From a virus (Duplodnaviria; Heunggongvirae; Uroviricota; Caudoviricetes), in the IMG/VR virus record IMGVR_UViG_2724679140_000004, positions 1 to 21,580 of that record: 21,580 bases of DNA; one strand, written 5' to 3'. The notes under the pieces were generated by a model. That model was not told where the DNA came from. It saw only the letters and a program-made list of their open reading frames with translations, and searched no databases. The position numbers were made by a program, and so were the translations under genes. Shown piece by piece: positions 21,160-21,580 of the stretch; position 1 is the stretch's first letter; every line of letters starts with the position of its first letter.

Positions 21160-21190
21160 ATAAACCCGCCGAAGCGGGTTAAGCGCGGGT
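21160..21190 (-). terminator. Terminator of the hok transcript
   Basis: Minus-strand RNA would read AACCCGC-UUCG-GCGGGUU followed by UAUUUUAU, about 60 nt after the hok stop. Confidence 0.6.
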
Positions 21191-21248
21191 GCGTTGAGGA
21201 TGCCTGACACATCAGAGGCGGCGAGGGATTTCTCCCTCGCCAAGTCTC

Positions 21249-21404
21249 TTACTCCTCAGGTTCGTAAGCTGTGAAGACAGCGACCTCCGTCTGGCCGGTT
21301 CGGATTCGTACCTCGCAGAGGTCTTTCCTCGTTACCAGTGCCGTCACTATGACGGTTAAACAGATGACGATCAGGGCGACTAACATCGCCTTTTGCTGCT
21401 TCAT
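21249..21404 (-). CDS. hok: Hok/Gef-family type I toxin (51 aa)
   Basis: MKQQKAMLVALIVICLTVIVTALVTRKDLCEVRIRTGQTEVAVFTAYEPEE is near-identical to HokD/RelF and Gef as I recall them. AAGGAG 9 nt upstream of the ATG at 21404; an in-frame upstream ATG at 21461 would give 70 aa. Confidence 0.85.
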   Translation of the reverse strand: MKQQKAMLVALIVICLTVIVTALVTRKDLCEVRIRTGQTEVAVFTAYEPEE

Positions 21405-21580
21405 AGCCTGCTTCTCCTTGCCTTTCGGCACGTAAGAGGCTAACCTACATGTGTTCAGCATGGATTGAGCCTCAGATTAATGTTAAGCGTCTTGCAGGAC
21501 GCGTAATGTTAACTGGGGCTTTTCTCTATCTGCCTTTGGTGTTCGTGCCTGAGGCAGACAGCCTCAAGCACCCATTATGA

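Follow-up and report, generated by a model that had tools for sequence, protein, structure and literature searches.

At the end of the window, by which we mean the whole 21,580-nucleotide stretch of DNA that was analyzed, we found a cassette that is very probably a complete and apparently functional hok/mok/sok type I toxin-antitoxin locus (positions 21573-21161, minus strand) that a lambdoid prophage carries in its nin region. The leader, tac, ucb, mok, Sok-complementary region, hok, 3' hairpin, fbi, and terminator of a full-length hok mRNA unit were all located inside the window, and only the hok promoter was cut by the window end. The cassette is an ordinary copy of the well-known RNA-controlled hok/sok toxin-antitoxin system. 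Its elements, for which we present the sequences, homology, and predicted folds below, were as follows.

21580, minus strand: last T of the hok -10 hexamer TAAAAT; the other five bases and the -35 element lie beyond the window
21161-21573, minus strand: full-length hok mRNA unit of about 413 nt, from the putative GGGUGC +1 to the end of the terminator, placed by homology borders and fold
21562-21573, minus strand: tac (translational activator element), GGGUGCUUGAGG, at the mRNA 5' end; pairs with fbi in the full-length MFE structure
21545-21554, minus strand: nt 20-29, just 3' of tac, candidate co-transcriptional metastable hairpin partner of tac, from the fold cut at nt 369
21515-21521, minus strand: nt 53-59, ucb, anti-Shine-Dalgarno sequence of mok (AAGCCCC), from MFE pairing and the consensus stem of RF01794
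21470-21473, minus strand: mok Shine-Dalgarno sequence GAGG, 8 nt 5' of the mok ATG and within the Sok-complementary region, read from the sequence
21249-21461, minus strand: mok reading frame of 70 aa, which is in frame with hok, shares its stop, and adds a 19-aa N-terminal extension
21414-21419, minus strand: hok Shine-Dalgarno sequence AAGGAG, 9 nt 5' of the hok ATG and overlapping, on the complementary strand, the sok -35 element
21249-21404, minus strand: hok toxin ORF, 51 aa, MKQQKAMLVALIVICLTVIVTALVTRKDLCEVRIRTGQTEVAVFTAYEPEE, from Pfam HOK_GEF and identity to hokD
21220-21241, minus strand: G+C-rich 3' UTR hairpin, GGCGAGGGA-GAAA-UCCCUCGCC, intact
21187-21199, minus strand: fbi (fold-back inhibitory element), CCUCAACGCACCC, which pairs with tac
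21155-21180, minus strand: intrinsic terminator of the hok mRNA, with a stem at 21180-21163 followed by a T-rich tail
21418-21446, plus strand: sok promoter, with -35 TTGCCT at 21418-21423, a 17-nt spacer, and -10 TAACCT at 21441-21446, assigned by identity to Sp5
about 21453-21529, plus strand: Sok antisense RNA of about 77 nt, with ends placed by alignment to the K-12 sokC ncRNA

The 51-aa product matched the Pfam model HOK_GEF (PF01848) over the whole model (positions 1-42; 83.6 bits against a cutoff of 22; E=7e-24), which puts it among the Hok/Gef peptides, a class of about 50 aa whose members have a transmembrane helix at the N terminus. The 70-aa form likewise matched across the whole model. 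All 156 of the 156 nucleotides in the hok ORF were identical to RefSeq-annotated hokD genes (WP_000813269.1), and NCBIfam Hok models matched as well, yet below their curated cutoffs (49.1 versus 73). A first-pass annotation of this DNA had assigned the locus to the Hok-family type I toxins and described its 3' end as structured, and the HOK_GEF match, the 3' hairpin, and the terminator bore this out. It had also pointed to an in-frame ATG at 21461, with about 120 nt upstream, that would yield a 70-aa product. This frame was confirmed, with about 119 nt between its ATG and the window end and with the internal ATG at 21404 giving the 51-aa Hok. The same was true of the statement that no ORF enters from beyond the window, as frames 1 and 3 stopped within 5 codons and frame 2 was closed by a TAA located 3 nt beyond the window (seen in contig L004, described below). 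A 43-aa plus-strand ORF at 21449-21580, antisense to the leader, was without support and was judged to be spurious.

The Tyr47 codon of hok was found in a UACG context (GCU UAC GAA; window 21263-21266, minus strand), with the editable A at 21265. UACG is the motif for TadA A-to-I editing, which is reported to recode Tyr to Cys in hokB, and the motif is said to occur at the Cys46 equivalent in hokC, hokD, and hokE (bioRxiv 10.1101/2025.08.07.668861). If Tyr47 were edited, a second Cys would be created as a partner for Cys30.

Upstream of the toxin, the Rfam model RF01794, which bears the name "sok" although what it describes is the hok leader in sense orientation, matched positions 21573-21399 with a score of 114.6 bits (gathering score, 59; E=3e-27). 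The match was untruncated (model positions 1-157 of 157), and it was the sole RF01794 match in the window. These data overturned two statements in the first-pass annotation, namely, that the regulatory 5' part of the locus was incomplete and that the presence of mok and sok could not be decided from the available nucleotides. The model matched end to end, and the GGGTGC start, tac, ucb, the mok Shine-Dalgarno sequence and ATG, and the promoter, RNA, and terminator of sok all lay inside the window. Weak matches to other Rfam families in the region (ceN48, CRISPR-DR46, and rsmX) were far under their gathering scores and were attributed to chance.

In megablast searches, homology to E. coli and phage copies began at query base 8, which is the GGGTGC at window position 21573, and homology to phages ended at query positions 404-423 (about 21177-21158 in the window), at the terminator, beyond which the neighboring sequences differed. 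Because these borders coincide with the predicted ends of the transcript, the conserved unit appears to be the transcript of about 413 nt, which lies wholly in the window. The cassette behaves as a mosaic unit with borders at the 5' end and the terminator of the transcript. The putative +1 at 21573 was placed by position 1 of the RF01794 model and by the pairing between tac and fbi.

The 413-nt RNA had a predicted MFE of -176.7 kcal/mol (z=-7.8 versus shuffled sequences). In the full-length MFE structure, tac (nt 1-12) was paired with fbi (nt 375-387) in a duplex of 12 bp with one bulge (-21.5 kcal/mol), and nt 54-57 of ucb were paired with nt 103-106 (GGCU), which include the last two bases of the mok Shine-Dalgarno sequence GAGG. 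The tac-fbi pairing was kept in 8 loci, with compensatory changes that set hokD-type loci apart from R1-type loci (GGGUGC/GCACCC here versus GGCGC/GCGCC in the R1-type plasmid loci). As modeled, the tac-fbi stem and the pairing of ucb with the mok Shine-Dalgarno sequence would represent the "closed" form of the mRNA, as in R1 (PMC9841398).

When 3' truncation was simulated, tac paired with ucb (nt 53-59) at two of the three cut points. At the third, a cut at nt 369, nt 3-12 paired with nt 29-20; the idea of such a metastable hairpin was taken from work on R1 (PMC9841398). For the mok Shine-Dalgarno sequence, the ensemble unpaired probability was 0.25 in the full-length RNA and 0.25, 0.24, and 0.11 in the truncated RNAs, with no rise. 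Because this probability did not increase, thermodynamic folding agrees with the model but by itself does not demonstrate the opening step. Two candidate assignments were rejected: GCCUCAGGC (nt 19-27) as ucb, because PMC9841398 defines ucb as the anti-Shine-Dalgarno sequence of mok and thus as nt 53-59, and, along with this reassignment, CCUGAGG at the hok stop as dcb. A further dcb candidate, AGCCUC (21441-21436), is complementary to GAGGCU at the mok Shine-Dalgarno sequence; it was read from the sequence, paired with the mok Shine-Dalgarno sequence in no MFE structure, and was left out of the feature list.

The sequence beyond position 21580 was taken from a near-identical IMG/VR contig, L004, which was found via an exact-match scan of viral contigs. 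L004 differed from the last 3738 nt of the window by 1 mismatch and ran 6.7 kb further, and it appears to be effectively the same phage. A promoter scan of L004 picked up one site in the region, the putative hok promoter TTTATA-17-TAAAAT at L004 positions 6701-6729 (L004 6729 corresponds to window 21580), and this promoter ended 6 nt before GGGTGC. In 8 loci, whose upstream sequences are of five unrelated types, the spacing from a -10-like hexamer (TAAAAT, TAGAAT, TACAAT, or TATAAT) to the conserved 5' G was always exactly 6 nt, and K-12 hokC had the same spacing between the -10 element and the start. This constant spacing across loci supports both the hok promoter, whose -10 and -35 elements were read from L004 and not from the window itself, and the proposed +1. 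CATAAT at 21579-21574 was rejected as the hok -10 element because it abuts the 5' GGG directly, whereas the 8 loci and K-12 hokC use 6 nt. Extension past 21580, which had been suggested as a check for a copy that was promoterless or disrupted by an insertion sequence, showed the hok promoter and no insertion sequence. The block upstream of +1 has at least two forms that are unrelated to each other, TTTGCG/TTGGCG...TA(A/G)AAT and TTTATA...TAAAAT, and both keep the 6 nt.

Directly 5' of hok in L004 is a 385-aa ORF (5569-6726, plus strand) with HTH_3 and Peptidase_M78 (ImmA/IrrE-like) domains. Its TAA stop overlaps TAAAAT, and the hok promoter sits in its last codons. The 385-aa protein also had a subthreshold match to the "spr1629 family repressor/antitoxin" model (162 bits versus a cutoff of 335). 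A 230-aa ORF with no family match (L004 4926-5618, plus strand) precedes and overlaps the 385-aa gene, and the two ORFs may constitute a second accessory or TA-like module.

An antisense promoter, which the first-pass annotation had suggested looking for on the plus strand around 21400-21520, was located at 21418-21446. The call rests on identity to the experimentally mutated sokW element of Sakai prophage 5. The two hexamers match the consensus at 4/6 and 3/6 positions, and a generic promoter scan did not pick up the sok promoter because this match is too weak. The -35 element overlaps the complement of the hok Shine-Dalgarno sequence. The predicted 5' end of Sok, G21453, corresponds to the annotated 5' end of sokC (GTTCAGCAT is identical in the two), and this is also where the sokW northern probe YO-592, which matched the window exactly at 21453-21482, ends. 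In the predicted fold of Sok (-31.2 kcal/mol; z=-6.1), a long hairpin stands between a short, single-stranded tail at the 5' end and a GGGGCUUUUCUCUAU tail. Sok reaches about 77 nt because its hairpin exceeds those of sokC and the Rfam consensus by 16-18 nt.

Sok is complementary to the mok Shine-Dalgarno sequence (21473-21470) and the mok ATG (21461) and not to the hok Shine-Dalgarno sequence or ATG. Since Sok covers the mok start and not the hok start, control of hok would have to be indirect, via mok, as in R1. At the sequence level, then, the locus has a putative cis-antisense Sok with its own promoter and terminator that is complementary to the mok initiation region.

Downstream of the toxin ORF, the hairpin reported in the first-pass annotation as GGCGAGGGA-GAAA-TCCCTCGCC was real and unique (0 of 100 shuffles), but it is located at 21220-21241 and not at 21214-21235, a displacement of 6 nt. 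The terminator reported after the toxin ORF was found as AACCCGC-TTCG-GCGGGTT at 21180-21163 followed by TATTTTAT. The homologue of the hairpin is where an element of the IS186/IS421 family is inserted in K-12 hokC (L007, about 332-352), and the same hairpin was hit by IS186/IS421 in an IncY plasmid copy of hokD (L009, about 535-560). Both copies diverge after GGCGGGGAG(T/A)GATC into an identical IS end, CCATAAGCGCTAACTTAAGGG. The 3' UTR hairpin looks like a recurrent IS186 target.

The closest studied locus was hokW-sokW of Sakai prophage 5 (Stx2 phage Sp5/VT2-Sakai; Takada et al. 2021, PMC8621323), which is also a lambdoid prophage. The cassette borders were the same in Sp5 and the window, the leader was 97.0% identical, and the equivalent of the sok fragment (21402-21555) was 97.4% identical. 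The sok promoter hexamers, including the -10 TAACCT, were identical, Sp5 orf74 was 93% identical (65/70) to the 70-aa Mok/Hok protein of the window, and every hokW-sokW primer or probe that we checked (PMC8621323) was an exact match to the window. The loci differed at the C terminus of Hok (FTAYEPEE in the window versus FVDYESEK in Sp5, plus V9I), in the sequence after fbi, where Sp5 lacks the GCGGGTT terminator present in the window, and in the promoter block upstream of +1 and the neighboring genes.

In experiments with Sp5, HokW arrests growth and sokW counteracts it; a fragment equivalent to 21402-21555 supplies sokW activity in trans (PMC8621323). In the sokW "pro-less" mutant, primers YO-421/YO-422 replace TAACCTA (window 21441-21447), antitoxin activity is lost, and toxicity is released (PMC8621323). 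When Sp5 is induced with mitomycin C, sokW RNA vanishes and HokW appears in a RecA-dependent manner, and phage release on induction is about 2-fold higher than in a hokW-sokW deletion (PMC8621323). Hok toxicity, Sok instability, and RNase-dependent processing are known from homologues only (PMC8621323, PMC9841398).

In the case of hokD (relF) in the K-12 Qin prophage, 155 of 156 nt of the ORF, the 3' UTR, fbi, the terminator, and a DUF968 (ydfU) neighbor were shared with the window. In contrast, homology began only about 17 nt upstream of the hok ATG, as the tac, ucb, mok start, and sok regions of K-12 hokD are replaced by the end of relE (the gene is downstream of relBE). The relB-relE-hokD arrangement was absent from the window, which has no relBE and has the full leader. 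From this comparison, K-12 hokD is a truncated copy and the window copy is complete. The protein is of the HokD type and the locus is of the hokW-sokW type; the RefSeq label "HokD" suits the peptide and not how the locus is organized.

Plasmid R1 and the R1-type loci (L010 and L011) shared with the window a -10 hexamer 6 nt before the 5' GG..GCUUGAGG, the tac-fbi stem, mok upstream of hok, a sok promoter overlapping the hok Shine-Dalgarno sequence, and a Hok/Gef peptide. Hok was only 40% identical, and R1 is a plasmid, whereas the window is a prophage. In R1, mok is out of frame with hok, whereas the window mok is in frame. An in-frame mok is also found in K-12 hokC(gef)/mokC/sokC, which shares the MLNTC start, the Sok 5' end, and the mRNA 5' end GGGTGCTTGAGGCTGTCTG with the window. 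As in the window arrangement, the annotated mokC and hokC share a stop and have starts that are 57 nt apart. In the K-12 annotation, sokC is an ncRNA of 59 nt, as against about 77 nt for the window Sok, and its start lies 9 nt within mokC. K-12 hokC lacks fbi because IS186 interrupts its 3' hairpin. Unlike K-12 hokC and hokD, the window cassette has an intact leader and no IS.

The window is from a lambdoid prophage, with lambdoid genes all around that are co-oriented with hok. The order on the minus strand was hok, a 129-aa ORF, DUF968, RusA, antiterminator Q, a gene-poor AT-rich stretch, holin/lysis genes, terminase, portal, capsid, and tape measure. Upstream, L004 and its relatives carry DUF1627, DUF977, and replication genes, which all have the same orientation as hok. 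The hok gene is located between the accessory HTH/M78-peptidase gene and the DUF968-RusA-Q genes, and Sp5, phage Evi, and many prophages of E. coli share this position. Several other features of this region were recorded. The 129-aa ORF right after hok (20512-20901, minus strand) had no Pfam or NCBIfam match, and in relatives the protein that RefSeq annotates there is a shorter, hypothetical one. Ahead of the holin gene, a 165-aa ORF (15463-15960, minus strand) had a weak TerB-domain match (27 bits). Q and the lysis cassette are separated by a stretch (15960-18256) of about 2.3 kb that was AT-rich (GC, 0.36-0.47) and ORF-poor. A full-length match to the sRNA STnc100 (RF02076; 17437-17650, minus strand; 109.2 bits against a gathering score of 47) lies in this gene-poor stretch, downstream of Q and before the lysis genes, and an iraM-like gene (17065-17394, plus strand) lies in the opposite orientation (NCBIfam anti-adapter IraM, 145.5 bits versus a cutoff of 121). 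No tRNAs or stx genes were found between 15960 and 18256, and at least 80% of this stretch was covered in only three E. coli genomes, all from mice, at 93% identity.

When 5426 complete E. coli genomes were searched with megablast, 4742 had a match to the 681-nt query (median, 2 places per genome), and 4265 (about 79%) contained 80% or more of the 181-nt leader/sok segment. Thousands of Hok homologues have been found in phages and prophages, with an approximately 4-fold enrichment in prophages (bioRxiv 10.1101/2025.08.07.668861). Exact-match searches of a species-representative genome collection with the window-specific leader, at 57 nt and 36 nt, gave no match. Because the hok leader is found in most complete E. 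coli genomes and thousands of Hok homologues have been surveyed, the locus is already known in kind, and it is nearly so in sequence.

Our proposal for how the cassette works follows R1 hok/sok and Sp5 hokW-sokW, and it is by homology to these systems that we infer the transcription start sites, 3' processing, mok-hok coupling, toxicity, and physiological role. A constitutive promoter just beyond the window would produce a stable mRNA of about 413 nt in which the 5' tac is paired with the 3' fbi. In this closed form, ucb would sequester the mok ribosome-binding site, mok and the coupled hok would remain untranslated, and Sok would be unable to bind. Slow 3' trimming would remove fbi, allowing tac to pair with ucb and the mok start region to open. 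As long as the short-lived Sok is made, from a separate promoter that lies within the mok/hok leader, it would pair with the open region and block mok and hence hok, and the duplex would be destroyed. Once Sok synthesis stops, the stored mRNA would be translated, and the 51-aa membrane peptide Hok would depolarize or lyse the cell. Sok synthesis might stop through loss of the element or through RecA-dependent prophage induction, as shown for Sp5.

The orientation of the genes suggested one way in which induction might act, as hok runs in the direction of the early-right (replication-nin-Q) operon and sok in the opposite one. Antiterminated early read-through might silence the weak sok promoter by interference and also produce a 5'-extended hok RNA that is unable to close the tac-fbi stem and would be misfolded and translatable. 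We put this forward tentatively and consider it rather unlikely. If true, it would explain the RecA-dependent loss of sokW RNA and appearance of HokW in Sp5, and the cassette would be a built-in sensor of induction and not of loss. In this lineage, the location of the hok promoter within the last codons of the HTH/M78-peptidase gene would make further coupling possible.

The same toxin-antitoxin mechanism could have abortive-infection defense of the lysogen as its main role, with shutoff of host transcription ending Sok synthesis and freeing Hok. Such a role would be in line with the lowered plating of T4 when R1 hok/sok was carried on a high-copy plasmid, as cited in PMC8621323, and with the 4-fold enrichment of hok in prophages, which are frequent carriers of defense genes (bioRxiv 10.1101/2025.08.07.668861). 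However, hok was not enriched beside defense systems in the same survey (bioRxiv 10.1101/2025.08.07.668861), and the effect demonstrated for the nearest homologue is the roughly 2-fold increase in progeny release on induction (PMC8621323). No feature of the window separates defense from stabilization or help with lysis. We regard defense as an unlikely main role.

Translation of mok necessarily gives an N-terminally extended Hok, since mok and hok are in the same frame, and only the 70-aa "gef homolog" orf74 is annotated in VT2-Sakai, so one could picture a single 70-aa protein made from ATG 21461 as the real product, with the long form being toxic and with no separate mok/hok coupling. Several observations argue against this. 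A strong AAGGAG precedes ATG 21404 by 9 nt, the form annotated in RefSeq is the 51-aa one, and K-12 annotates both mokC and hokC. In addition, K-12 hokD keeps only the 51-aa ORF and its Shine-Dalgarno sequence, and the 51-aa HokW alone (primer YO-357 starts at this ATG) arrests growth (PMC8621323). We find a sole 70-aa product quite improbable.

A decaying or silent chromosomal copy that looks like hok/sok and is not expressed or not toxic, as might be supposed from older work on several chromosomal hok/sok loci without post-segregational killing (as summarized in bioRxiv 10.1101/2025.08.07.668861) and from the K-12 copies, in which hokD lacks the whole leader and hokC has IS186 in its 3' hairpin, is very improbable here because every K-12 break point is intact (the leader, the 3' hairpin, fbi, the promoter in L004, and the ORF) and the leader/sok region is 97% identical to that of Sp5 hokW-sokW, which is experimentally toxic and Sok-repressed.

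The results indicated that the locus should be annotated as an intact hok/mok/sok cassette, including an unannotated Sok RNA and mok frame, and not as a truncated copy. Beyond this correct annotation, the finding has little consequence; it is mok and Sok, and not hok, that annotation pipelines overlook. The biology at issue is the role of prophage hok cassettes, whether in stabilization, help with lysis, or defense, and what switches Sok off on induction. For testing these questions, the copy described here would be equal to Sp5 and not superior to it.
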